Of a stretch of DNA of 64,000 nt, positions 3,450 through 41,004 are shown piece after piece. This DNA comes from Marsupella aquatica (lineage: Eukaryota; Plantae; Marchantiophyta). Each line of letters opens with the position of its first letter. Within the stretch, counting starts at the first letter, position 1. Under the pieces are notes generated by a model. It had not been told where the DNA came from, searched no databases, and saw only the letters and a list, made by a program, of their open reading frames with translations. The stretch is taken from contig OZ316891.1 in assembly GCA_973895155.1 (NCBI GenBank), forward strand, positions 25,605,899-25,669,898, given 5' to 3'. The position numbers and the translations under genes were made by a program.

Positions 3450-3765
3450 TTGGACTTTGGTCCTTGGTCCTTGATGGGCTACGTTGGTCCTTGGTCCTTG
3501 GTGGGCTACTTTGGTCCTTGGTCCTTGATGGGTTACGTTGGTCCTTGGTCCTTGGTGGGCTACTTTGGTCCTTGGTCCTTGGTGGGCTACTTTGGTCCTT
3601 GGTCCTTGGTGGGCTACCTTGGTCCTTGGTCCTTGGTGGGCTACTTTGGTCCTTGGTCCTTGGTCCTTGGTGGGCTACCTTGGTCCTTGGTCCTTGATGG
3701 GCTACGTTGGTCCTTGGTCCTTGGTGGGCTACTTTGGTCCTTGGTCCTTGGTGGGCTACCTTGGT
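3450..3765. repeat. Tandem repeat, ~27-bp unit (GGTCCTTGGTCCTTGGTGGGCTACTTT) built from GGTCCTT 7-mers, ~11 copies
   Basis: Directly visible; it generates the repetitive spurious ORFs in 3226-3807. Confidence 0.95.
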
Positions 3766-5771: not shown

Positions 5772-6282
5772 TCTATAGTGTGCATGCTATAGTGCATGAC
5801 CTACAGTGTGCATGCTACAGTGTACAATCTACAGTGTGCATACTATAGTGTACGGTCTATAGAGTGCATGCTATAGTACATGGTCTATAGTATGCATGAT
5901 ATAGTGTACGATCTATAGTGTGCATGCTACAATGCAAGACCTACAATGTGCATGCTACAATGTACGATCTACAATGTACATGCTACAGTGTACGATCTAC
6001 AGTGTGCATGCTACAGTGTACAATCTACAGTGTGCATGCTATAGTGTACGGTCTATAGAGTGCATGCTATAGTGTACAATCTACAGTGTGCATGCTACAA
6101 TGTATAATCTACAGAGTGCATGCTACAGTACACGGTCTACAGTATGCATGCTACAGTGTACAATCTACAGTGTGCATGCTACAATGCAAGACCTATAGTG
6201 TGCATGCTACAGTGTACAATCTACAGTATGCATGCTATAGTGTACAATCTATAGTGTGCATGCTACTGTGTACGATCTACAG
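5772..6282. repeat. Minisatellite, 28-bp unit (CTACAGTGTGCATG-CTACAGTGTACAAT; two related 14-mers), ~18 copies
   Basis: Directly visible. Confidence 0.95.
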
Positions 6283-6499
6283 TTGCTCCACTCACGTAAC
6301 TACAGTACTAGCACACTTACTTGCCTTGGGATGTGTGACACATGGCTTTCATCCGTGTGCCATGCTTGATCCGTGTGCTTGAGGTGTGAGCACTATAAAT
6401 AAAGAGGAGAGGGGCTCTCTTCCCTCACTCTATATTTTTTTCATCAACTGAGTTGTGAAGCCTTAAGAATCCATTGGACTTGATGACCTCCTCTATAAA

Positions 6500-6770: not shown

Positions 6771-6886
6771 TTCATTCAAAAGAAGATAAACTTATTAAGA
6801 TGAACATCTGCATGTATATACTTAGAGTTAACTCAATGCACAATATTTGTTTGAAATGAATGATCTTTTCGTTGAATGATTCTAAA

Positions 6887-6918
6887 CACAGTGACGGACC
6901 AAACGAGAAGTGTGACCA
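6887..6918 (+). repeat. Left terminal inverted repeat
   Basis: CACAGTGACGGACCAAACGAGAAGTGTGACCA, followed by an inverted subterminal TACTTCTCGTTT copy. Confidence 0.88.
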
Positions 6919-7228
6919 TACTTCTCGTTTTGCCCGCGGCGAAAAAAATTTCTAAGGCAAAAAAGTCTTGGATACGGAATTAGTATTCCCCCTAAAAACT
7001 AGTTTTTTGGTTTCAAAAATGGGAAAAATCGAAGTGAATACGAAGATGGGATACGGCGTATCCCATCTTGGATCCAACCGCGGAATTCCCCCCCAAAAAA
7101 AAATGCAGTAAAAGTGCCGATATTGTTTTACCTGTTAAGAATATTCCCATACGAGTCTTCTCAACGGTAACATTTAACCGACTGCGCTGCAATTGCAGTC
7201 AAATACTAACCACGGTCAGGGAAAAAAC

Positions 7229-7236
7229 TATAAATA
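7229..7236 (+). promoter_or_regulatory. Putative TATA box of the first cargo transcript
   Basis: TATAAATA, then a CT-rich leader and a CAG|GTGAG donor at 7356. Confidence 0.45.
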
Positions 7237-7384
7237 GGAGATCCCCGCTTGAAAATTTTCCGCTCATTTCTTCTCGCTCTCTATCCTCTTCCTCTCGACG
7301 AATGCCCACCGTCTATACAAACTCGTATTCCCTAAAAATCAGATTTGACTAACAGGTGAGAATCTTCATGCAAATGGCAAGGAC

Positions 7385-7860
7385 GAATCCCAAATGGGAT
7401 ACGGCGTATCCCGTTTGGGATTCAACCTTCAAATATCCAGTTTTTGTTTCTGTTTAGTTAAAAAAGGAGGTTGGATGCAAAGTGGGATACGAGGTATCCC
7501 ATATCGCATCCAACCTCCGAATATGAAGTATCTTAGCCTCCAAATGTCAAAACCTCAACGTTGAATGCGAAATGGGATACGGCGTATCCCGTTTGGGATT
7601 CACCCTTCAAATGTCCAGTTTTGATTTCTCTTTAGCTGGAAAAGGAGGTTGGATGCAAAGTGGGATACGGGGTATCCCATATCGCATCCAACCTCCGAAT
7701 AATAAGTATCTTAGTCTCCAAATGTCAAAACCTCAACGTTGAATGCGAAATGGGATACGGCGTATCCCGTTTGGGATTCAACCTTCAAATGTCCAGATTT
7801 GGTTTCTCTTTAGCTAAAAAAGGAGGTTGGATGCAAAGTGGGATACGACGTATCCCATGT
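7385..7860. repeat. Palindrome array 1: ~178-bp tandem unit with two palindromes each (6 palindromes, ~89-bp spacing), inside predicted intron 7356-7922
   Basis: Alternating GAATGCGAAATGGGATACGGCGTATCCCGTTTGGGATTC and GGATGCAAAGTGGGATACGnGGTATCCCATATCGCATCC; a further single copy at 7043-7069. Confidence 0.92.
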
Positions 7861-8019
7861 GGTATCTCCCTAGAGTTTTCTTGGCATGGGAAAAATCTTA
7901 TGGATTGCTGATTGTTTCGCAGGCGAAGTTCAACTAAACATGCACTGAAGCTCTTGCTGCCTTTCAGTGACTCAAGCTTTTGCTTTCCTGGAAAAACAAC
8001 GTTTTCTCTTGTGAGTCTA

Positions 8020-8346
8020 ATGGCGGTCCAGAATCAAGACCGTGAGAAACGTGCTCGTCGATTGTATAAGCGATTAGTTGCACTCAAAGTTCTCCGTCCT
8101 GGATTAGGAGCGCTATGGACGGGAGGCGTGGATCCACATGATAGTTTGAATCCACTCCAAATAGAGTTTTGTGAAAAAAATGAAGACGGAGTTTCGATTC
8201 GGTCGAGGATATGTTTGAGTGGTTGTCTGCACTCTGTTAATTCTTCTTGTAATTATTGTCGTGATGCCCGAAACAAATATCATCGATTAGCATATTTGTG
8301 TTGTCGGATTTGGAACGAAGATCCTTGGGTTAACTTATTGCGTTGA
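8020..8346 (+). CDS. Small basic Cys/His-rich transposon protein of unknown function (~108 aa)
   Basis: ATG at 8020 follows the acceptor at 7922; MAVQNQDREKRARRLYKRL...CLSGCLHSVNSSCNYCRD..YHRLAYLCC. ORF is intact. Confidence 0.5.
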   Translation: MAVQNQDREKRARRLYKRLVALKVLRPGLGALWTGGVDPHDSLNPLQIEFCEKNEDGVSIRSRICLSGCLHSVNSSCNYCRDARNKYHRLAYLCCRIWNEDPWVNLLR

Positions 8347-8561
8347 ATCTTCTTGATTAGTGTGTAAGTGTTTAGGTGAACGTTCTTGGGTCAAAACTTT
8401 TTTGAATATATTTTTCTTTTGATCAAAGAAATAAAATCAGTTTTTCCATCATTATTTTGTAGGTTGCAGAGAAAGTGCTCACCATCTCATTTATTACTCC
8501 AGGTATCCACCCTTGTTTTGGAATGGCCGTCACTGAGAACCCTGTCTTTACAAGGTTAGCG

Positions 8562-9092
8562 ATGTCATTCGACATAGAGAAGAAACAAATTCAGTAGAAA
8601 AGTGGCCAAAGGGAATTCAAATTGCTTTTGGATGGACTTCCTGATGAGATTGTTGAAACGTTCATTTGGCCCATTTTGAAAGTTTGTTGTATAGAGGATG
8701 AATTTGATTCCTCCAAGAACCAAGCTGATGAAAGATTGATGCAATTAAAAACAATGGTGTGGCTTGGATGCACCTCCAAGAAATGGAACCAGCTCGTAAT
8801 TTGTACACGAGTTTGGGGTACTCTTAGACTAGCAAGAAGCCAGTTTGAGGAAGTAAATGAAATGCTAACAAACATTCCCAATGGAAAACCCCTTCAGAAT
8901 GTTCATATTGAAGCTTTTGTTAGGATGGAAACACCGAATCTTCCTCCAATCGATTTCTTAGGTTTATTTTCAAGGTCTGACCTAAATTGATTTCAAGAAG
9001 ACTGGCACAATCTTGAGAAAGATGAGCAAGCAAGGCTCTTGGAAATGTATGGGGAAGCTTAGAGCTTTATTTTGTGGCACAATTCCGGATGA
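8562..9092 (+). pseudogene. F-box-like protein, interrupted by in-frame stops
   Basis: LLDGLPDEIVETFIWPIL...LGCTSKKWNQLV...VW matches the F-box pattern (LP.E+...I; ..V(S/C)K.W..L....+W). Stops at ~8595, 8988 and ~9060. Confidence 0.6.
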
Positions 9093-9227
9093 ATAAAGAG
9101 TTTTGTGATTCTACCCTTACATCAACCCCATTTGCTAAGCGTAAAATCTATTTGGTTTAATCCAAGGACATGGGGATATGCCTAATCTAAATCTAGTCAG
9201 AAACAAAGTCCTATCAAGCAAAAAAAG

Positions 9228-9235
9228 TATAAATA
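9228..9235 (+). promoter_or_regulatory. Putative TATA box of the ParB-MTase-Ulp1 transcript
   Basis: TATAAATA, then a pyrimidine-rich leader and a CAG|GTAAA donor at 9442. Confidence 0.45.
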
Positions 9236-9483
9236 GACCTCCGGACTCCAACCCTTCGCTTTTGAATTCACCTTATCGCCTGTGTCCTTGGATTAAACCA
9301 AATAGATTATCGCCTTATCGCCTGGTCAGAAAGTGCACGCTCATTTCTTTTCCTTCTCAACTCCGTTTGCCTTTGCGTTTTTCTCGGGCCGCAACATCTC
9401 TATAGCTTTTTGTATTTGCTCGAATCGAAACAAAAAAACAGGTAAAACCTCAAGAAACTCTCCCCTCCTTGGCGCACTTCATT

Positions 9484-9998
9484 GTTGAATCCTGAGTGGG
9501 ATACGTCGTATCCTCATTTGCATTCAACTCTATTCTTTGCACTTCTATTCGAAGAACAAAACTTTTCAATGTTGAATACGAGATGGGATACCGCGTATCC
9601 CATCTCGCATCCAACACCCTCTTTTTAGTATTCCATCGGAACCTCCTGGCTGTTTGTTGACTTTGAATACGAAATGGGATACCGCGTATCCCATTTTGGA
9701 TTCAACTACATCTCTCTGGTCTTTTATTGCAAAGTACTAGAAATTCCTGATGTTTAGGGTTTAGCGCCTTTGCGGAGGATCATTGCAAAAATAGCCGCAT
9801 TGGATGATGTTGGATACAAACCGGGATACCCCGTATCCCATTTCGCATTCAACTCCCTATTTTTTGTTCTTTGCATTAGACTAGGCAATTGTTGATGTTG
9901 GATGCAAAGTGGGATACCTCGTATCCCATTTCGCATTCAACTCCCTATTTTTTGTTCTTTGCATCGGACTCGAGGCAATTGTTGATGTTGGATGCAAT
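9484..9998. repeat. Palindrome array 2 (5 palindromes plus a truncated sixth)
   Basis: GTTGAATnCGAnATGGGATACnnCGTATCCCATnTCGCATTCAAC-type copies at ~9490, 9572, 9665, 9810 and 9898; the next copy breaks off at TTGGATGCAA (~9998). Confidence 0.9.
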
Positions 9999-9999
9999 A

Positions 10000-12900
10000 A
10001 GAAACTGGATCGACGTGACATCCAAAAGGTTAGCGCGCACCATCTGCACCCGGAAGTGTTGTCTCATCTTTGGTCCCAACAATTTTATAGACACCATCTC
10101 AGATTCCTTCAACTTTGTTAGGTGGGCCTTCTCTATCATCTAGGGGTGCTGTGAAAGAAAAGAAAAACAATTCAACAGATATCACCACAGCTTTGCAACG
10201 GGAAGAGACACTTATGGTTCGTGAAGAAGTGTCTCGGTTGATGGAGACCAAGAGCGTTCAGAAGACAACTGTTATTCTGAAAACAACTAACCTGCTTCTT
10301 GTTGACGATATTGACGACAAGAACTCAACATTGGTTTGAACAGTAGATCGGTTGCATGTGGAGAACATCAAGACTTTGATGAAAATGAATCCAACAAATT
10401 TCACCACGCCATTTGTCTTGTTTGTGATCCCCGAAGACTGCCCGATAGTGACAGACTGGGACCCAAAAAAGGCAACGAGCTGGAGATATCAAGTGATTGG
10501 AGGTAATCACGGTGCTCGAGCTAAGAGAGAATTGTATCAGGCTTATGGGAGAGAGATCTTCAATGAACTCCAAGCTTGGGTGTATGCTGGTCTCACAAGG
10601 GAGGACATTCAGAAACTTAGCATCCAACATAATATTGATCAGTAGTACAGGAAAAAAATGAACAACATTGATCAAATCCGAACAATGCATAAGATTTTCC
10701 TTGCCAGAGGTATGGCAAAAACCAAGGAGACTAGAGAAGCGTGTGCGATGGAGGTTTGCCTCGACGGGTTTTTTCCGGGGGACGCCACAAGCCTAAAGAA
10801 GCATGAACCTCTCTTCCAAATTGCGTTTAGGTCGGGTAAGGTCTAGGAACTCCAAGACCAGATCTTTGAGATGTGGAACAAGTTGGAGATCAAAGGGTAG
10901 AATAAGCAGAAGTCACCGATCAAGAAACTCAAGAAAAAAGGAAAAGTGCAGTTGATTCCAAAAGCTTTGAATAAGCTTGCAGGGGGCCTTACCCTGACAC
11001 CTTGGAGAGCAATCCAAGGAATTGAACACGACTAATTTTTGGAGTCCCTTCTTCTACGAGTGAAGGACCGGATGATCTCTTTGGAGCAGATGGCAAAAGA
11101 AGCCAAGAGTTACAAGAAACTTGTGAAAATCAACACGCTTTTTGTTCAGTTATCAGGGCAGCCAGACTGGGCAACTTGCAAACAAATGTTTCCAAAAGAA
11201 ACAGAATCTGCCGAGCTCGAAAGATGGAGTGGGAAGTTGTCTGATGTGGTATGTTCTCCCCTTCCATTGATTGGACTTTTCTTGGATTCACTTGTGTTTA
11301 TTTGACGTTTGTGATGTTTCAATGAGGTTTTTGCTTGGTCAAATGCAAAGTGGGATACGGCGTATCCCATCTCGGATTCACTTGTGTTTATTTGACGTTT
11401 GTGATGTTTCAATGAGGTTTTTGCTTGGTCGAATGCAAAGTTGGATACGCGATATCCCATCTCAGATTCACTTGTGGTTATTTGACGTTGGTGATGTATC
11501 AATGTGGTTTTTGCTTGGTCGAATGCGAAGTGGGATACGCGGTATCCCATCTCGGATTCCCTTGTGGTTATTTGACGTTGGTGATGTTTCAATGTGGTTT
11601 TGCTTGGTCGAATGCGAAGTGGGATACGCGTATCCCATCTTGGATTCACTTGTGTTTATTTGATGTTGGTGATGTTTCAATGTTGTTTTTGCTTGGTTGA
11701 ATGCGAAGTGGGATACGGGGTATCCCATCATGGATTCAATTGTGGTTATTTGACGTTGGTGATGTTTGAATGGGGTTTTTGCTTGGTTGAATGTGAAGTG
11801 GGATACGGCGTATCCCATGTCGCATTTGTCGTCCAGATTTGATTGTTTGAATGCCCAAATAGTTCTCCCCATTGTCTTTTCTCTGGATTCTTTTAACAAG
11901 TTTGCGTTTGCAGTTGAAAGCTTTTTTGAAGAAGAAGAACAAGGATGCAATTGGTGCCAATGCGGTTGAGAAGCCTTCGGAGGAGCTGACTTTGAGTGTT
12001 ATTCCCCCGGGGTTTAAGAATTATGTTCAAGAAGCGATTGCGAACTACAACCGTCGTCGTGGGATTGAAACAGTTGAAGCAAAGTCGAGTGACCATCGAT
12101 GGCGCTGATAGAAATTTCATCAGATATACATTGCATTGTGGAGATGTTAGGGCGTTGGATAAGTTTGTAGAGAAAAGGAATTACACACTTGCAATTGCAG
12201 ACATTCCCTATGGATTCAATGCGTCTGGCTCCGAAAATGATGAGGTCCCATTTTCAGAGAGTGATATTGTGGATATGGTGAAGTGTTTTGCCAAGGTGAC
12301 AAGTTCAAAGATGTGGAGGTTTGTTGTGATTCACTTTTTGCAGCACACTTGGTCTATGATGAATGCCCTGGGAAAACTTGTAATGCAGGTGTAGAGGCTG
12401 GAATTTGGAAGAAGCCAAATGTACATGCTCATCCTTCGGGGAATCGATTGGCTTGGGCTTTTGAAAACTGGTCAATCGGATATTATCACGAGAGTGGTAT
12501 TAGGACCAGAGACATGTACAATTTTGAACATGATGAGAAAAGGGTAAACATCATAAAAGTCCCTTGTGTTACAAAGAAATGTGTAACACCATTGGGGGAA
12601 ATAGTGAACCCTTACCAGAAGCCGATAGCTCTAGCAGATTGGTTCATTCAACATTTTAGTGAAGCAGGGGATTGGGTTGCTGATTTATGTGCGGGGAGTG
12701 GTTTGACCTCATGCGCTGCCTTGTTAGGGAAACGTCCGGTGACAGCCGTGGAGCTCAGTTCAAGCCAGGTGGATTGTATCCGGACCCGACTTGTCACGCT
12801 GGATGAATCGTGGGACTTGAATGATGAAGCAACAGAGGAGGGTACAAGACCCATGAGCTTCGAGGTTCAACCACCTATTGGTGGTACTACGAGCACCCTG

Positions 12901-13992
12901 ACCACTGGAACTTGCATCATTACAACCGCGGAGGAGAACGACAATGATGAGGATGAAGAGAATGAAGTGGAATATGAAGCTCCGACACTTGATCTTGGCT
13001 CATTCTTTGAGGTGTAGACTTTAGTTTCATTAGTTCTCTCATGTTGTATCTATTGATCCAAACTTGTGAAATATTGAGGAAGATTATGATTGGACTATGT
13101 TCTTATTTCACAAAGTAATGTCTTTGCAGGAACCAAAGGAGGATTTTTTATTGAAACATGTTCTGCATAGATTCTCACACAATCCTTCTAGTGGGTTTCT
13201 TTTGGACAATAAAATATTGAGCCAACTTGAACCCGGTCAATATTTGGGTGATGAAATAATAGAATTTTATCCATAATTAATAACCGAGGAACATGGAGAT
13301 CTGGCTTCCTCAGTAAACACATTATCCTCTTTTTTTTACCCTTGGCTTGTTTCAAGGATTGAAACAGAACCAGCTGAGATCTTGTTGGAATCAATTCAAA
13401 AGATGCGGAATTATTACAAGCCACCATTTTCCCAAATTGAGGTCATTCTCATGCCAATTCACATGAACATGCACTGGAGTCTGGTTGTAATATGTTTGGA
13501 TCGGATTGAATCTTCGATCAAAATGTATCATCTAGACTCTCTTGCCGGTCTACACTCAACCCATGTAATTGGATCAATACTGAGCAGGTATGTATATATT
13601 CTATTACATTTTTTCCATTTTAAATTATTTATGTGGTATATAAATATAAACACTTTGGACTAAGAACTTGAATGATAATTTGCAGATATTTTACAATGGA
13701 ATGGGAATTATTTTTTGGAAAAGTTCCAATGGGAGTTGTGGAGATATACAATCCAATGGTAAGGATTTGAAAAGTTATTTCAACTTTTATTTAGTTCAAT
13801 TATTAAACACTTTGGACTAACTTTAAGATTCTTTCTCAGGTACCTCAACAACCAAACAATTCAGATTGTGGTCTATTTGTTCTTCAAAATATGGACAAAA
13901 TCAGAATTCAATGGCATATTACACAATGCCTTGATGCACAGTCTTTATTTACTGAAAATGGTACAATTGTAAAAGAGCATGTAACCTTATAA
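10000..13992 (+). pseudogene. Spliced ParB/Srx-like + beta-class N6-adenine/N4-cytosine DNA methyltransferase + acidic linker + Ulp1/C48 SUMO-protease fusion
   Basis: ORFs 10115, 10352, 10658 and 11039 share one frame (LV*TVDRLHVENIK..., YQVIGGNHGARA). Intron 11249-11913 is phase 0. MTase motifs LHCGDV, ADIPYG, WKKPN, NPYQKP and DLCAGSGLT..VE (two frameshifts). Phase-0 intron 13012-13129 joins SFFE to EPKE..LEPGQYLGDEIIEFY. Ulp1 motifs HWSLVV, LDSL and QPNNSDCG span introns 13588-13685 and 13759-13839. Confidence 0.8.
11285..11830. repeat. Palindrome array 3: six ~90-bp tandem units inside intron 11249-11913
   Basis: Unit GGATTCACTTGTG.TTATTTGACGTT.GTGATGTTTCAATG.GGTTTTTGCTTGGTCGAATGC.AAGTGGGATACGnnGTATCCCATCTC. 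Confidence 0.95.
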
Positions 13993-14012
13993 AATTCATT
14001 CGAGATCAAATT

Positions 14013-17000
14013 CTAAAATTGATGCATGTACCTGTTTAAGGACATCAATCTCAATCCTCTGAGTGTGCAGAGCCTCTCTAATATAGCAGACTCTATAATT
14101 TTTTTAGTTTTTGCTGCTATTTGATTAGTACTTAAAAACACAAAGTTGTATGTATACACCGCTGTTGATGATAAAAGTAGTTCATCTTGGAGAAGTTGAT
14201 TAGATATATTATCTTTCTCTGGAAAATATTTCCCATCAATAGCAGACTTAGCACTTGCCTCAGTTGTGTACCATGTGATTTTGATCCTCTTAGGAATGTC
14301 TGCAGTTCTTGTCAAAATCTTTGACACCTTTGCCATCCAAAACAACTTGCCTTCTGGATCCTTGTGGGCCGCTACACATATCATGGACCACTTATTGTTA
14401 ACTTCCATATCTCTGAAATCTCCAAATTCAGCTTGCTTTCGTCAAGGTCCGGAGTACATAATTCTCTGTGGTCCAGCAACTTTGTCAACCAAAGTTGGAT
14501 CAACACCTTCTTCAACAAGTTCATTTCTCACCCTTCGAAGTGTTGCACCTTGATTTTGTTGCGGCCAAACCCACTCAAATAACCACTCACCTTCCTCTAG
14601 GTGGTTTTTGATAATATCTTTTTGTTTCTCAAAAAAACTCATCCACCAAAGTTTGTCTTCATTGTCAACGTAATTGAAACCTTCCTAAATAGCTTTTTCA
14701 TATTTCACGAGAGTAGTTAACGCACCATCTATATTGGAAGAATCATGGACATCATCCCTCTCAACACCTTTTGCTGACTTCAGTGACATTTGTGCAGCAA
14801 CCCACATTCTTGAAGTTGGAATGTAATTGACAAACGTCACTGCATCTCCCCAATCCTGGGTTGTGGAAAGATGTTTCCCGTGAAATGTTGTCTCTTTGTT
14901 TCCATCCTCCATGACTCGTTTGAATCTGAATTGTCTTTGAAAAGTTATGAGATTGAGATCTCACAAGACTCTACCTGAGACTCCCTTCTCATTTGGCTGG
15001 TCGGTTTCATCGACAAATTTTCGAAAATTGGCTACTTCATCCACAAATATGATCAAAGCTTCAGGTGAATATGCTCGTCGAATAAATCCTCAAGAGTCTC
15101 CAAGCGAAATGCTTTGTGCTTGTTTAACCTAGATGAAAATTTACTAAACATCTGATCTATCTGGTCATGTGTATGACCGACCAACAAGAAACCCACTTTA
15201 ATCTTGTCAAAAATCTTCAAATCTATTAACATGTGAAGATAAGCCATCAAGAATTTATTCTTGTTTTCCCTAGTGGTATTATCTAATTGAAGATATAACA
15301 CTCTTGGTAATGTCCCATCCCATGTATTCAATACATTTTGAATAACATGTATGGTCAAGTTTGCATCATTATGGATATTGGGATATGTCAAAAATACTTT
15401 TGCTGCAAGGTTCCTGTTGAAGATGAGACAACCTACAACATGTATTGGAATGAAATATTTTTCATCCATATTCTTCGGACAACGAAGAAAATGTGGTAGC
15501 TCTGTTTTCTTTTGATCCATACCATCTATACAAATACCCAAATACTTGTTGGGTTCATCATAGCATTTGTTACGATGTTTGGCTAACTTCATCCTTTCCA
15601 ATGATTGTACTTTTCGATGCTCCATAAGGCATTGATGTACTTTCCTGAAATGATACAATAACAATGAATCAAAAATCAATAACTAAGGATAAACTTTGAC
15701 AAATATTGAAGTACATGTCATCAATTAAAGTTTAAAGGTTGTAGTTAGTGGTGCTTACTTTTATCCTCTTTAGTTGTTGCTTTGTCCCGAAGAGCCTTGA
15801 ATTCAGTACAAGGACCACAAGTAGAAAATCGACTTCTTTTAGGTATTCGTACATTTGGAAACTTTTTTTTCCAAACACGCAAAAAATAAGAATATGTAAC
15901 TTGTTGTTCTTCTCGCAACATTGTTTCAACTTCAAAGATTCCATGTATCTCTTGCTTTGTCCAATTGTTTGGCAAGTGATGAATCTCTTTATGGGGAAGA
16001 CTATCCATATTTTTTTGGAAATTTTTTTCAACCATTCCACCAGGTTTAGAAATGAAGGTGATTTTTCCTTACAAAAGGTATCTCGTTCAATCCTTGTAAA
16101 CATGTTTGCATGGATTGTTGCCAATCTATTATTACCTAAAGAATATAGTTTCTTGAATCCTCCTCTACATATAGGTTGTCCATTTACACTATATCCACGA
16201 GAAGTACTACTACTGTTCATGATATAACCCCGTAGCAAAATATTTTTCTGCAAGTGTTTAAGATCAAAATAATACTTACGTTATTTTGAGCATTCCTCTA
16301 GACCTAGAGACCTCAAGCAAAACTTGTCATAACAGGGATACTTAAACATATCTTTAATTTTGCGTTTTTTTAGATTTGCAATGGTAAGTCTATCTTTTCT
16401 AATCATCTGATCTCTGATTTTTTTGCTGGGTCTTGTCACCTCTACTCTATCCTGAATAGTGCCGGGAGAACTTACCCCCCCACTATTTTCTAGTGAATTA
16501 GAATTCAAAACAAAAAGATCTTCTGTAGAGTTGTTTCCACTCTCCACATTTTCTGTAACTGTTTCATGAACAATCTCACATCCCAAGATCTCTTCAACAA
16601 CATTTGAGATTATAGCAATCTCTCTGTCATTTGCAACTGCCTCTGATCTCTCTTCAGAGTCTTTAGAAAATGTAATAGGTGTTCGGAGATTTCTAGTTTG
16701 AAATCTTCTAATGATATTCACATCATCAGTCGTAGTACTGCCCACTTGTCTCTGAGACTGTAATCCCAGCCTAGGTGATTGTTCTCGACTTGAGGGCTCA
16801 TCTTGACCATTGAATAATCTTTGGACAAGTTTCAATTTAGCATGTACCCTTGAATTTTCGGGCCCTCTCTCCGGCAGCTCACTTTGCAACAATCTCCGAG
16901 GAATTTTCTGGACACTAGATCTCTTCCCTCTTTTGTTCTGCACTTGCCGTCCAATGGAAGATCCAAAAACCTCACACTGCATCCTCGCCAAAGGGCTTCG

Positions 17001-17914
17001 AAGCCCCATGTTGTTAGTTTGACCATTTGGTGAAATAACCGATGGGAATACCGATTGGGATCCATAGATCCCAACTCGTATTCGTCCTTCGGGACTTCGA
17101 AGTGAAAACTTTCCCACTTGCTGTTCTGCATCATGACGTGGCAATTTTCTATTGCGCAATACAAACTGGGATCCACGTATCCCATTTCGCATTCCACCAT
17201 TGGAACTCGGGTTGGAAGTCCGCAAGACCGGTGACTCGGGCACAAGATTCTGCAAAATACCACGAGGGAATACTAAGTGGGATCCATGGATCCCACTTCG
17301 TATTTGACCCATGGAATTTGGTACTGAAAGAGACGAAATAGGCAATTCGCGTTCACCGTTTCTCAACATTTGAGTAGGGAATGGATCCCACTTGGTATTT
17401 GACCCACCAAATTTGGCTCCGAGGCTACCCCTCCCTGCAATTCCGGCACATTTGGACTCCTCATTCGCTCAAACTGTGATTGAACACTGGACACAGCTAT
17501 CTTCACTCCCGGAGAACGAGACATTGGAAAAACCAACGGAGATCTTCGGGCGAGCCTACATGGTAACGTTGTTCTTGGCATTAAAAACCGGGGCCTTCGT
17601 CTTCAAAGATCTGTCGGGGTTCACGGAGAACCAGGTGTCTTTGTCGTAGGAACTACATTAGGCTTCTTTACAAGTAGACGTCGTTTAAGAGGTTTACTTG
17701 GAGAGACATAGTATGAAATTGGAGCACCCACAACACTCCTACAAGACTCTGAATCGGACTCTGATTTCTCAGATTTTGAGGAAAATGAAATCTCTGGCAC
17801 TACTCTCTGTGAGGCTGGTAATTCATTCATCAAACAAGATGGAATAAATTTTTGAACAACATCTGGCGAAGATGCATCTGAACTATAAATTGACTCATCA
17901 CTTGAAGACGCCAT
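14013..17914 (-). pseudogene. DDD/E-type transposase (DUF7869/Sola-like) with frameshifts and introns
   Basis: GICIDGMDQKKT, LQLDNTTRENKN and FLLVGHTHDQIDQMFS catalytic-type motifs; upstream Cys motifs (PC..KFCL, PICRGGFKKLY, FSTCGPC). Serine-rich N-terminus from ATG 17914, with TATAAAA at ~18070. The superfamily name is uncertain. Confidence 0.8.
17040..17410. repeat. Four ~110-bp-spaced variants of the palindrome (GGGATCCnnnGATCCC type) within the transposase 5' ORFs
   Basis: Copies at ~17056, 17168, 17278 and 17380; further variants at ~18268, 18330, 18418 and 18654. Confidence 0.75.
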
Positions 17915-18984
17915 AGATAATCAAACAAGGGTTGTATAGGAGTACGTATTCCTATCCAACAGAGATACTTCAGATTACAGTATCCTATGAAAACAACTAC
18001 TCAATAGTGAACGAACCTCAAAGTAATCGCGAGAAATGAAGATGAAAAACAAATGCGAGCTCTTCCTTTTATAGTTTTTGGGGGCATTGTACACGTGGCA
18101 TTCCCTGATTGGTCCGTACGAGGGTTTTTTCAAGTGAGAGTTTGTCTTTTCCAGGACTGTTGAAATTTAAATTGTAGATTTTTGAGGAAGTCGTCGTGGA
18201 TCCGAGTTGGTCTTCAAACTGGAATATCAAGGTATGCAATGCAAAAACTTCAAAATGTAGAGGTTCATGGATCCCATCTAGTATTCATCCTCCTGTTTTC
18301 CCGATGAGTTTTTGGACTTGCAAAAAAAATGGGATCCATGGATCTTAGTTGGTTTTCATGTCGAAAGATCTCCTGATGCAAAGTTGCAGGTGGAAAACAT
18401 TGAGGTTGAATACGAGAGTGGATACTTGGGTCCCGTCTCGTATTCTCATGGTTATGGGCTAAAAAAATTCCGAACATGTCATCGGGTTAACTTAACTAAC
18501 TGTGTGGGTCAACTATAGTCCACGGTTAGTTTTTCGCAGTTTTCCGGGTTACCGTAGTTAAAAATTCAAATATTTTTAACCCGAGGTTAAATGGAAGCGT
18601 CAAGAGAACGATTTGGTGCGGTTTTTGTCCACGTTCAACAGTTGAATCCGAAATGGGATACGTCGTATCCCATTTTCAGTTTGCCATTTTGAAGGCGAAA
18701 ATGAAATCTTGTGTTTTCTTCATTTTGTTTGACTCTCGAATTTAGCTTTTAGAGGATCACGTGAAAAACATTGTTTTTCTAGGTTTTGGAATTTGCCCTT
18801 TTTTTAGATGAAGTGTATCGGAATTCTGGATTGTAACAATTCTTTGTTTTTGTGTCAACAGTATCTTGATTTGAAATCCGATGTTGGATGCAATTTTGGA
18901 TTCATCCTCAAAATAGCGTTTTTGATCTTAATTTTAGTGATTTTTTGCCGTTTTTGCGAAATCAAAAACACACTTCTCGTTTGG

Positions 18985-19016
18985 TGGTCATACTTCTCAT
19001 TTGGTCCGTCATTGTG
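18985..19016 (-). repeat. Right terminal inverted repeat
   Basis: TGGTCATACTTCTCATTTGGTCCGTCATTGTG, preceded by a second CACTTCTCGTTTGG subterminal copy. Confidence 0.88.
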
Positions 19017-19554
19017 TTTCTATATCTTGTCATTAGAATGAATATTAGTTGGATAGAATATTTGATAGTATGATAATGCCCAGACCAGTACCTGTTCTTC
19101 CTCTCCCTAATCCTTTCCTTATTAGAATTCATGTACTCCAAAAAGAGATCATGCGTCAGCATATGACTTTTCACTTTGGAGAAACATTTGCAACTGCGGT
19201 GTTAAATTCAATAGAGCCGATTGTATACCCTTATGTAGTTTATGGGCAAGATTGGGCTTGCACAATTTTTATCTTGTATTGAGATGGATCTCAACAAACC
19301 TCCCTCCGATGAACCTCCCGTTTCTTTTTCATTGGGAGATATTTGTTTTGTAACTCGACCCAAGGTAGCTGCCAAGAAGGCAATAGTCCGTAGGTATGGA
19401 GAAAAAGGTTATGATGTTGTGCTTTCATCCACAGAACCATTCATTGTGGTGTCTGCTACCCAGTCTAGAATAATAATCATGATCTTAACTTAAGTTCTCT
19501 CTTGACACTAGCAGCCATAGGCCCGGTGCTTCCTCAAGAATCACATTTTCCCCC

Positions 19555-21470
19555 AGACACCGCCATGGCCCACCCCCAGTGTATCTTCCCCTCCCTTTCA
19601 GATGACACCCACATCATTGGTCCTCCTGCCGCGGTTACTTTTGCCCTCGCCACTCTTTCCACCCATTTGATGGGCCTTGGTTTACGAGTTCAGCCTATAA
19701 AGAGTCATGCATGGAGTCCAGCTGGGTTACCCTCTGATCTTGCGCTTCCCCCAGGGTTCTTACGTCCAGCCGCTGGTCTTCGGGTCCTTGGCTCCCCAGT
19801 CGGTACCGCCTCCTTTTGCTCATCTTTCATCGTTGACTCTTTACAGGCTGCCTTAGCCCCTACTCCTATGCTCCCTAAGTTAGCAGATTCTCAGGTAGCA
19901 TTTGGGATGTTGTTGAGGTGCATCCACCCTCGTGCGTCTTATCTGGCTAGGACACATCTCCCTACCGAGGATCTTTGTCTCCACCTTCAAGCATTTGATG
20001 TCTCCATTCGTGAGACTTTGGCCTCTCTTTTAGGGCCGGGTGCGTTGCTCTCATCTTCATGGCTTCATCGATAATTTGGTCTTCCTATTTTGCAGGGTGG
20101 TTTTGGGCTTACTTCCATTGAGAGCCTTGCACCTTTGGCCTTTTTGGGTGCGTGGGCGACGGCCTTCTCATTGTTGGCCGATCGTTTCCTTATTGCGGAT
20201 TGCCCTTTTCTACTTTCATCTCTCATGGAGGTAGAGGAGGGTTCCCTCCCATTTCAGGTTCATTTGCGCGCAGCGCGGTCATCATTACCAGATCCCGTTC
20301 GCATTGCGTTACCTTCTTTTCAGGAGTTTTTATCCTTGGATCCCGTCTATCTTCAGGCAGACCTCGGTGGGCGTATGCAGCTTTCACCCTTTCCAGCATC
20401 CTCTCCGAGGCACCTGATACGGACCGAGCTCAGATTCTTTCTTCCAAAGGGAACGACGCAGGAGGATGACTTCAGGCCAATCCTGTCATTCCTCATTTGC
20501 GGATGTCTTCAACGGAGTTCTCCACAACCATGCATCTTTGTATGGGGCTGCCCTACCCACTTCTTGCAGGTTTACCTCCTTCTTGGACTTGTGGGAAGCC
20601 TTGTGATGCCACAGGTGTCCATCTTCTTTGGTGCAGTTTGGGAGGTGAAACCATTATTGTTCACGATGTTGTGCGAGATGCGACTGCTCAGGTTCTCTCT
20701 GGCTCTTTGGTATGCGTGAGGCGGGAGGTGCTTCTCGAGTTACCTGGTCCTCCATCACAGCGGTTACGGGTGGATCTTACCATGGTCCATGAGGGTCAAC
20801 GTACTTTGGCAGATGTAGTGGTGGCAAACCCATTGCGCCAAGACATCATTGGGACAGCGGCAACAACGGCAGGGGCAGCAGCATCACGTGTGGCAACAAC
20901 GAAGGAGGCCAAATATGCTGCACAAGCTTCATCCGACAACTTCCTCCCCCTTGCTCTGGAGCTATTTGGGCGTCTTCATCCTCAGTTTGATGAGCTTCTT
21001 CGGCAAGCTGCCCGGGATGTTCATGGCCGAATGGGTCCCACCGGACCCCCGCTTTCTGTTTTGACCACGAACTTTTGCCAACGCATTTCAGTCACCTTAC
21101 AGCGTGCTCAAGCTTGGGCCATCTATCGTCGATCTCTTATAGTGGGTGCTAGTGTGCCTCCGCAGCAGCTAGCTCCCCTAAAGGATGTTCCAATCCCACT
21201 TGCCGATCTAGTTTTGACCCTTGATGTGGACCATTAGCTTTTTGCCACATTTGCTAGGAATGATGAGGACCTCGGTCCGTTTGGGTTAGTTTTAGTCTCT
21301 CTTTCTTGGTTTTTAGGGGTTCCCTATTGCTCATTTCTTACTTTTAGTTACTCTTTCTTGGTGTTTAGTGGTTCCCTTTTGCTCACTTCTTTTATGTTTG
21401 GTTTTGTCCACTTGGACCCTCTTTTGTTTGTTCATTTGTACTCTGTCTGGTCCCTTCGTATAGAAAAAGT
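19555..21470 (+). mobile_element. CRE-like non-LTR retrotransposon, 3' part (RT C-terminus, CCHC finger, restriction-like endonuclease), frameshifted
   Basis: PSLSDDTHIIG (YxDD-like), LRVLGSPVG, GGFGL, CGKPCDATGVHLLWC, HDVVRD, RVDL..TLADVVV, KEAKY, FLPLALELFG; T-rich 3' UTR. Confidence 0.85.
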
Positions 21471-38717: not shown

Positions 38718-41004
38718 AAGACATACAAGGCTTGAAACTCATCAACGACAATAGGCTTTGTCATCAACTCTTCACTGATGAGACCGGTTTGTTCCTAGCT
38801 GCCACAGAGAAGGAATTCCAGACAGCAAGGGGAATTGTCCAACAGGACGAGAACATCTCCGACGCCCTCTTAAATGTGCATAAATCTAAAATCATTCCTG
38901 TCTATCTCTCGGAGGGAGTTTATCCCGAGTGGCTACAGAATACTGGATGCAGGATTGCCAAGGCCAGGAAGGTCACTGAGTACCTGGGGTGTCCTATTGG
39001 CTATAAGGTGCGACCCTCCCATGAAGCTACTTTTTTGGTCGGGAAACTAAGAAGTCGCTTGTGCCACTGGACTAACAGGAGCCTCACCATGGCTGGGAGG
39101 TCTATTTTGCTGGAGCATGTTTTGCGGTCAATTCCTACCTATCACCTGATGTCATTGGCGTTGTACAAAACCGGATACCAAGAGATGGAAAAAGTTTGTC
39201 GTCATTTTCTGTGGGGATCCAAGAAGGGGTTTGAGAACATCACTGGCCACAAGAAAGCTCTCATAGCCTGGAAGGTCATCGTCTCACCCAAAGGGGACGG
39301 GGGATTGGGAATTCAACCTTTTGGCGAGCAAGCTCAAACGCTGAAGACGAGGCACATCTTTAAACTTATTGTTGGTTTGGACCATGATTGGCTGAGAATG
39401 GCACAAGAAATCATTACAAAGGGGCTAAAATTCAAGTACAGGGAAGAAAGAGAGAAGAGGTTGGACTGCCACTGAAGCACTACTATTGAGTGATGAATTG
39501 TTGATCAAAGGTTTGCATACTTTGAAGAGCCTGGTCCAGGGATGGGTGGCCAAGAGACAATAGCTCAAATTAACTTTGGGGAAGGCAAGTTACCATCTCA
39601 CCTCTCCATTGAGCAGACGGTGGTCTTGTACATCTGCAACGTGCATGGCTCTACTCAACCGGGGTTGGACCTGAGGAGATTCCTGGCTAATCGCAACATC
39701 AAGAAACTCCTTGATCTCCAGACTCAGGAGGAGATCCAGTACCAGATTCGGAGCACACGGATTGGGAATGCAGAGTTCAGTACCTTTTACAACAAACTGA
39801 AACAAAATAGTGGAATTACTAATGAGGAGTTGCATGAATGTGGGGGTTGGCAGTGGGATTGGAAGGGGAAAACTAGGGGTTGGATTTTGCTAACAGGACT
39901 TGAGGCCAAAGCCACACTCCAGAGCTGCCTGATGTCACTAAGCTAAACCGACGATGGGGGCAAACCAATGCCCCACAAGGTTGGAAGCAGACTTGGAAGA
40001 AACTTTGGGGTGGCTGGTCTTTCCCTAAGGTGAGATTTTCCATGTGGCGCCTTTTGAATCCGTGTTTCTTTACCTACGGCCAGGCGAGCCACTGGGGTGT
40101 GTGTGATGGCATTTGTGCTAGGTGCAAAAACCAGTTTGAGCACACGGAGCACATGTTCTTCAGCTGCAGATCTATCACCACAAGATGGAATGAGATGCAA
40201 AGATTGTTGCAACATACTACCACTTTGAAGATACCTCAAGGTTCCCTGTATGAAGCTATTGTTGCTGCCATTCAGGTGCACAAGAGGAAACCCAGCCCGC
40301 TGGTTCTGATCATGGAGATGTGCTCCAATATTTGGAACGAGAGAAATGCCGCTGTTTTTTCTCAATTTCTGGGGCGCCTTCCCGGTTGGGTTGTTTTACG
40401 TCAAACTGAAACCCATCTCCAAACTATGATTGACATAATTTGCCACTCTGAGAGGAAATGGAAACAACTACAACTTGCAATCTGCCAACTCTAGGTTTTT
40501 CTTAAGCCTTGGGAGAAAATTGACAGCCCTCTAGCCCTGAATTTTGATGATGCAAATGGCTGACAAACATCCCAGCACTATGAGGTGGCCTGACCTTAGA
40601 CAGGACAGAAGTACTACCCACTACACTAAGGTTACTAATCATGGGAGTATCCCTTTGGACCTGAAGAGTTGGGACCAACCTAGTGATAGGAACAGGAACA
40701 AGGCGGATAACAAGTGTAGGAGGGTTATGATTGATAACTCTAGACAGCCCAAGGTTTTTTTGGAATTTATGCCTCTTGGTAGAAGTAAACAGAATAGGGA
40801 TAAGTCTGTTTGGAACACCAATAGGGGCACCATTTGGTGGGTTCTTAGGGTTCCTTGGCCTGATTAGTGGTTTGGGTGTTTTTCTTTGGGTTCTTTGGCC
40901 CCCGGGTGTTGGGGCCCCTCTTTGTGTTCTTTGCTTGGGTGGCTTTTGTCCCCTTGCCTGGTATTGATGGGTTTTCACGCCCCCCTTTTCTCAAAGAGAA
41001 AAAA
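38718..41004 (+). mobile_element. 5'-truncated L1/Tx1-type LINE (RT C-terminus and zf-RVT), frameshifted
   Basis: HQLFTDET (FADD-like), LLNVHKS, YLGCPIG, SIPTYHL, GGLGI, CARCKNQFEHTEHMFFSC, IWNERN; A-tail; 12-bp TSD AGTAAGACTGTT at 38706-38717 and 41005-41016. Confidence 0.92.

Follow-up and report, generated by a model that had tools for sequence, protein, structure and literature searches.

Fusions of a ParB_N domain to an N6_N4_Mtase methyltransferase (MTase) are known from phages (PMC4738411). The same source draws eukaryotic MTase clades from phage ParB-terminase loci, describes a chlorophyte Dam enzyme carrying a fused helix-turn-helix of the ParB type, and credits land plants with few N6-adenine (N6A) MTases. 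ParB clamps and their parS sites, the latter 16 bp in length, are regarded as prokaryotic. Here we describe a 64,000-nucleotide stretch of the liverwort Marsupella aquatica (contig OZ316891.1, positions 25,605,899–25,669,898; hereafter "the window"), in which a multi-copy DNA transposon carries an accessory gene, decayed in this copy, for a ParB-fold domain joined to a beta-class amino-MTase. The family to which this gene belongs places a predicted ParB fold on plant transposons.

The gene has the same domain order as the phage fusions, which are also the nearest named Atlas clusters for the MTase homolog P0035 (0.86–0.87, leads only), and several phage models align over 640–780 columns. Unlike the phage fusions, the plant family is carried by a eukaryotic cut-and-paste transposon, is interrupted by spliceosomal introns, and has a long, predicted DNA-binding region of helices; local identity of the plant MTase to phage and plasmid MTases is only 21–42%, and the ParB part has no sequence match. 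With bacterial ParB, Noc, or KorB and their parS sites, the family shares the N-terminal fold, as modeled in a homolog, and a clustering of 16–17-bp palindromic sites, and may share the fold of the helical domain. It differs from the bacterial clamps in having GGNH(G/S/T) without the arginine patch, no ParA, and a fused MTase, and its DNA binding is predicted.

VANC and KIU of the VANDAL Mutator-like elements are similar in another respect, namely an accessory transposon gene, family-specific motifs in tandem repeats, and Ulp1-bearing variants. VANC proteins bind family-specific motifs that are amplified as tandem repeats in VANDAL introns and upstream regions (PMC5735166), and some contain a Ulp1 domain (PMC13317346). 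The window element has another transposase family, palindromes instead of the short direct motifs of VANDAL, and a fused writer enzyme. Pfam scans of the window and 48 homologs gave no VANC match, and no direct test of VANC homology was made. MpDN4MT1 of Marchantia and rotifer N4CMT share with the window gene a beta-class N6_N4_Mtase fold in a eukaryote; these are host genes whose catalytic motif is SPPY, and no mention of ParB was found for either of them, whereas the window family has D-x-P-Y and is transposon-borne (DN4MT1 was compared by its described motif). The TET/JBP fungal DNA transposons likewise carry an enzyme that modifies bases and has been proposed to work against silencing (PMC12730594), which as described there is an eraser dioxygenase without ParB; the window element has a predicted amino-methyl writer. 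Finally, DUF3723, a conserved cargo of fungal Starships (Starship preprint), was the top Atlas feature match for the ParB part of homolog P0005 (0.96, 10 of 30 matches; a lead only). The link is weak, with a recognition score of 2211, below the mark of 2300, and no Pfam DUF3723 match in the homologs scanned. By this analogy DUF3723 may be a ParB-fold protein.

The literature searched, which included few subscription journals and no Repbase Reports, gave no description of a transposon ParB-MTase family. The consulted text of PMC4738411 describes no plant transposon in which a whole ParB domain is joined to a beta-class enzyme, although its supplements may list such proteins.

Structure of the Transposon and Its ParB-Methyltransferase Gene

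The transposon (6885–19018, no strand assigned) is 12,134 bp long and was delimited by a pair of terminal inverted repeats (TIRs), a target site duplication (TSD), and read contigs. The left TIR (6885–6918, + strand) is 34 bp long and agrees with the right TIR (18985–19018, − strand) at 31 of 34 bases, and the 4-bp TSD, TCTA, is found at 6881–6884 and 19019–19022. Four public sequencing runs behave as DNA, and other copies of the element were read from their contigs. In all four runs the contigs cover 30 of 30 bins of the element; contig ends hang loose at 6885 and at 19018, and a joint from 6879 to 19018 represents the empty site. The first-pass annotation, made from the sequence alone, had placed the gene on a plant transposon, and the TIRs, TSD, multi-copy coverage, and a DUF7869 transposase gene bear this out.

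The ParB-fold exon (10091–11248, +) has homologs with 42–83% identity, and its start codon is not fixed. ParB-type motifs lie in a single frame, with GGNHG, part of the motif pair noted in the first pass, at 10499. Searches of Pfam and PHROG with the exon gave no match, and ParB was not seen among the best 60 of 606 PDB sequence-profile matches, so the ParB/Srx assignment rests on structure: the predicted structure of the homolog P0005 (predicted local distance difference test, pLDDT, 69) matches the ParB/Noc fold. By this model, the exon would comprise a nucleotide-binding-type domain and a helical DNA-binding region. We take GGNHG, from ParB structure, to be the counterpart of the ParB CTP motif. 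Of 90 homologs that bear this motif, only 2 have an arginine after its histidine, and the window's clade has glycine. Caulobacter ParB with the R103A or R104A substitution binds CTP weakly or not at all (PMC8367383). The earlier label "ParB-like CTPase" thus holds for the fold, as modeled in the homolog, and not for the nucleotide-binding arginine.

The MTase exon (11914–13017, +) ends in an acidic tail and a TAG at 13015–13017, and was delimited from Pfam, a PDB profile, Foldseek, and homology of the stop codon. DIPY (motif IV, 12200) precedes YQKP (12613) and DLCAGSG (motif I, 12682), an order that places the enzyme in the beta class, as had been proposed. The Pfam N6_N4_Mtase domain (PF01555) was matched at E 2.7e-7, with 31.2 bits against a cut-off of 26.7. 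The model of the homolog P0035 (pLDDT 79.5) shows a permuted Rossmann fold, with CcrM as a Foldseek match (E 2.7e-12) and rotifer N4CMT at rank 13; the ParB/Srx and Rossmann MTase folds, which the first-pass annotation had named beforehand as its structural check, were therefore both recovered in homologs. Homodimer prediction for residues 76–510 of P0035 scored 0.13 and speaks neither for nor against a homodimer.

The methylated base would probably be N6-methyladenine (6mA), and N4-methylcytosine (4mC) is less likely, because motif IV of the family is D-x-P-Y (DIPY, DVPY, DFPY, DAPY, DLPY, and DPPY) and the SPPY of 4mC writers was not encountered. Against PDB, the family profile matched N6A enzymes at E 1e-13 to 1e-11 and N4CMT at E 4e-6. 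The N6_N4_Mtase domain has, however, changed specificity repeatedly (PMC8885841). The earlier suggestion that the gene is a source or close relative of DN4MT1 and N4CMT found no footing, as no close link was seen, the motifs differ, and the profile favors N6A enzymes.

The two exons are separated by a phase-0 intron (11249–11913, +) with GT..AG borders, as first noted, which holds a 90-bp tandem array with five palindromes and one 16-bp variant. The intron has the same position in all five related loci recovered from metagenomes (L001–L005). Among 14 aligned homologs of the ParB exon, 10 reach the valine at the donor, three end earlier, and P0015 continues directly into the MTase exon. Because of this shared intron, the read-through in P0015, and single two-domain proteins in several organisms, the fusion of ParB and MTase as one spliced polypeptide resembling the phage fusions, a central proposal of the first pass, is well supported. 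Upstream of the ParB exon, a region at 9228–10090 (+) contains, in the predicted exon structure, a putative TATA box, a non-coding first exon (donor 9442), and a 5' intron with five palindromes (9498–9927).

The first-pass annotation was right about the domains and motifs and left unmentioned that this copy cannot make the protein. The ParB exon has five in-frame stops (10337, 10643, 10844, 10898, and 11033), the MTase exon two frameshifts (near 12100 and 12370), and the Ulp1 protease part that follows one stop (13274), and the copy in the window is therefore a pseudogene. Among the matches listed for other copies in the four public runs, the stops at 10643 and 13274 are absent and frame-restoring indels occur at both MTase frameshifts; the remaining four stops do not appear among the matches listed. 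Intact copies therefore probably exist or existed recently.

Palindrome Arrays

The palindrome GGGATAC-N3-GTATCCC, passed over in the first-pass annotation, occurs at 18 sites inside the element and at none outside it in the window, against 0.14 expected. Ten of the 18 sites belong to the accessory gene, in its 5' region and its intron, seven lie less than 1 kb from the left end (a subterminal repeat array at 7048–7856, no strand assigned, with a tandem array at 7385–7858), and one lies 350 bp from the right end. The arms are 94–100% conserved and the spacer bases 56–78%, which gives the sites the look of those bound by a dimeric protein. Four of the related loci use GCGA(G/T)AC-N2-GT(C/A)TCGC and one uses CCGATCCAAACATCGG; none of their 55 sites falls in an exon, and exons make up half of their DNA. 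At 7 nt from the core, the palindrome types have an outer AAT..ATT in common, which is present on each side at 17 of 18 sites in the window. Each subfamily thus has a parS-like palindrome of its own, 16–17 bp long, with which its introns and promoter region are filled, and this makes specificity directly testable by protein-site swaps. A second, 16-bp palindrome variant resembling GGGATCC-N2-GGATCCC was observed close to the transposase gene's 5' part at 17057, 17168, 17279, and 18331, with 111-bp spacing.

Homologs and Selection

A search of 1.84 billion representative proteins gave 146 matches, from which 48, mostly longer ones, were chosen for a Pfam scan; 11 of these 48 had N6_N4_Mtase at E ≤ 0.01. 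Both domain profiles were matched by 21 of 180 stored proteins. Named members include Chara braunii, Riccia sorocarpa, Adiantum, Ginkgo, Holothuria, Ptychodera, Branchiostoma, and Haliotis. Single proteins that contain both domains occur in Chara and Riccia, in a fern and Ginkgo, and in a sea cucumber. As to where locus-specific 6mA or 4mC in plants might come from, the ParB-MTases of Chara, liverworts, ferns, and Ginkgo are concrete candidates, and the module could be put to use as an epigenetic writer that loads at defined sites. A first metagenome scan returned no relatives, and pattern-limited scans of viral contigs and prokaryote genomes confirmed none.

Across subfamilies, silent sites are mostly saturated and non-synonymous divergence (dN) is 0.06–0.53, and the coding sequence has therefore been under strong purifying selection. 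In a quick, midpoint-rooted tree (98 of 100 segments kept, no prokaryote rows), the window falls in a group with plant-named rows (65 rows; Shimodaira–Hasegawa approximate likelihood ratio test, 99), apart from animal-named rows; such a tree is silent on the donor and on the order in which events took place. At the end of the Haliotis proteins, a weak Tudor match takes the place of the MTase. Four abalone species have in common a ParB-like protein of >90% identity with this Tudor-like end (P0095 and P0173–P0175), which suggests domestication. Other animal members are P0124 (Branchiostoma) and P0113 and P0171 (Holothuria). In L001 (643–1689) and L003 (393–1208), an upstream coding exon contains a conserved domain of ~200 aa (38% mutual identity) that belongs to no Pfam family and has no match in the window.

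Ulp1 Protease and Its Possible Products

Downstream of the MTase, a Ulp1/C48 protease region (13130–13992, +) consists of three exons (13130–13587, 13686–13758, and 13840–13992), with a Pfam Peptidase_C48 match, better than the cut-off, from 13130 onward (E 1.2e-11). Its exons, spliced in silico, give a 227-codon frame with one stop. The catalytic His, Asp, Gln, and Cys are at 13472, 13532, 13846, and 13864, the last two of these after introns 13588–13685 and 13759–13839. The Ulp1 exon begins 113 bp past the MTase stop with no TATA-like box in between, so that it is likely co-transcribed with the ParB-MTase. Related loci stop at a TAG homologous to that at 13015–13017, after the same acidic tail (5 of 5), and the transposase 3' end follows within ~370 bp without Ulp1 in L002, L003, and L005 (3 of 3); L001 and L004 run out ~300–360 bp after the stop. 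Ulp1 is accordingly regarded as an insertion of the window's subfamily.

The first-pass annotation made the main product a single ParB-MTase-Ulp1 polypeptide, joined by a predicted intron at 13012–13129 (+, 31% GC). This intron is indeed phase 0 with GT..AG borders and a canonical acceptor, and the frame that it opens keeps all four catalytic residues. The short gap to Ulp1, a 945-bp contig of another copy in which Ulp1 is linked to the MTase, and the precedent of VANC-Ulp1 also favor a triple fusion. However, the donor (GAG|GTGTAG) is atypical, since it lacks the A at +3 that the other 11 of 12 donors compared all have, the TAG that it would remove is an ancestral stop, and Ulp1 was found in none of the 48 scanned homologs by Pfam and in none of L001–L005 (best match E 1.7). 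Weak evidence in the same direction comes from searches for longer relatives, with none for Ulp1 among 239 candidates and only four unfused proteins for a longer MTase. Moreover, a join of 11248 to 13130, by which the MTase exon would be skipped, is also phase 0, keeps the frame just as well, and starts from a consensus donor. The triple fusion was thus not confirmed and is best treated as a possible product that falls short of being probable; a ParB-Ulp1 protein made by the exon-skipping join and a separate Ulp1 protein from an ATG at 13097 or 13118 are each somewhat doubtful, to the same degree.

Proposed Function and Alternatives

We tentatively favor, at a little under even probability, a product that recognizes the palindromes of its own element and methylates the element against silencing, in a self-recognition similar to that of VANC. 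The helical domain of ParB would bind the palindromes as a dimer, and the ParB part may spread from them like a clamp. The fused MTase would write a self-mark, probably 6mA, which would oppose host silencing by 5-methylcytosine (5mC) and keep the element active, and the Ulp1 add-on of the window's subfamily would strip SUMO from silencing factors locally. The arrays of element-specific motifs in non-coding parts match the VANC-type layout. If true, such a product would provide an enzymatic route to transposon anti-silencing, for which the VANC mechanism itself is unresolved. Several points weigh against it. Binding, methylation, and expression are all predicted; the CTP-motif arginine is missing, so that CTPase activity is hypothetical and "CTPase" serves as a fold label only; and motif IV is degenerate (LDMP) in animal members, including the sea cucumber MTase. 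The window copy is CpG-depleted (observed/expected 0.26–0.65) with transition-rich decay of the 5mC type, and element copies therefore do get silenced. The transposase could equally be the palindrome binder. Tandem duplication multiplied the sites, which are thus not independent, and the three palindrome types seen do not suffice for a test of whether they co-evolve with the protein. A more far-reaching and rather unlikely version is that eukaryotic transposons took over a complete bacterial ParB-parS system as a nucleotide-gated clamp, which would load at the palindromes of each element, slide along it with an adenine MTase (here also with a SUMO protease), and leave a private 6mA mark; the module would be old in streptophytes, present also in marine invertebrates, and perhaps including the DUF3723 of Starships.

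The same palindromes lend themselves to other roles. A ParB-MTase bound near its own and the transposase promoter could act like KorB, damping transcription or transposition, with the methyl mark as a copy-number memory; this is improbable, as arrays of 5–20 sites, many of them intronic, fit the VANC layout better than a few operators would, and the elements are high-copy. In CACTA elements, subterminal repeats are bound for transpososome assembly. By comparison, the transposase or ParB at the palindromes could assemble a transpososome here, with methylation timing transposition or guarding against self-insertion, and the seven sites near the left end, the one near the right end, and the fact that the accessory gene accompanies the same transposase in each of the three loci extending that far would suit such a helper. 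The TIRs, however, contain no such palindrome and the 10 sites of the accessory gene lie far from the ends, which leaves this role no more probable than that of a KorB-like repressor. That the gene is passive cargo, with palindromes as a by-product of tandem repeat turnover, agrees with the dead copy in the window and the site counts inflated by duplication, and is nevertheless very unlikely in view of the strong purifying selection across subfamilies, the arms kept while spacers vary, and the exclusion of sites from exons.

Transposase and Other Features of the Window

The DUF7869 transposase gene (14013–17468, −; Pfam PF25273, E 1.5e-42) is broken, and its 5' limit is approximate. It is convergent with the ParB-MTase gene, its end lying 20 bp from the Ulp1 stop, and its 3' parts are homologous in L002, L003, and L005. 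Asp motifs are at 15529 and 15286, and GHTHDQID is at 15178. We presume that this transposase family is linked to the Sola superfamily; a search of the literature found no paper containing the term "DUF7869". A 4-bp TSD with an AWWT preference is a hallmark of Sola1 (PMC3845634), and in the one insertion examined here the length agrees and TCTA falls outside AWWT. The transposon may be Sola-like. The C-terminal ~120 aa of the transposase (14013–14441, −) form a conserved domain with 47–53% identity in L002 and L005 and no Pfam match, which appears Tudor/SH3-like by eye.

A putative third gene (8019–9063, +), delimited from open reading frames (ORFs) and regarded as a lead, combines a Cys/His-rich ORF (7912–8346, +) and an F-box-like ORF (8598–8990, +), the latter with a Pfam F-box match only below the cut-off (E 0.28). 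Together, the two ORFs may be a third cargo gene, one that would act on ubiquitin alongside the SUMO protease.

The empty site (6850–6884 and 19019–19060) occurs at high depth in several contigs, and the element was therefore inserted into another repeated sequence. Beyond the element are LINE-like retrotransposon remnants at 19469–21237 and 38720–40494 (+), the second with a zf-RVT match, and tandem arrays at 3457–3765 and 5772–6283, with units of 27 bp and 28 bp, which are unrelated to the palindromes. The host genes beyond the element include a LysM receptor (NFP/LYK), a DHBP synthase, and a PhzF-like gene.
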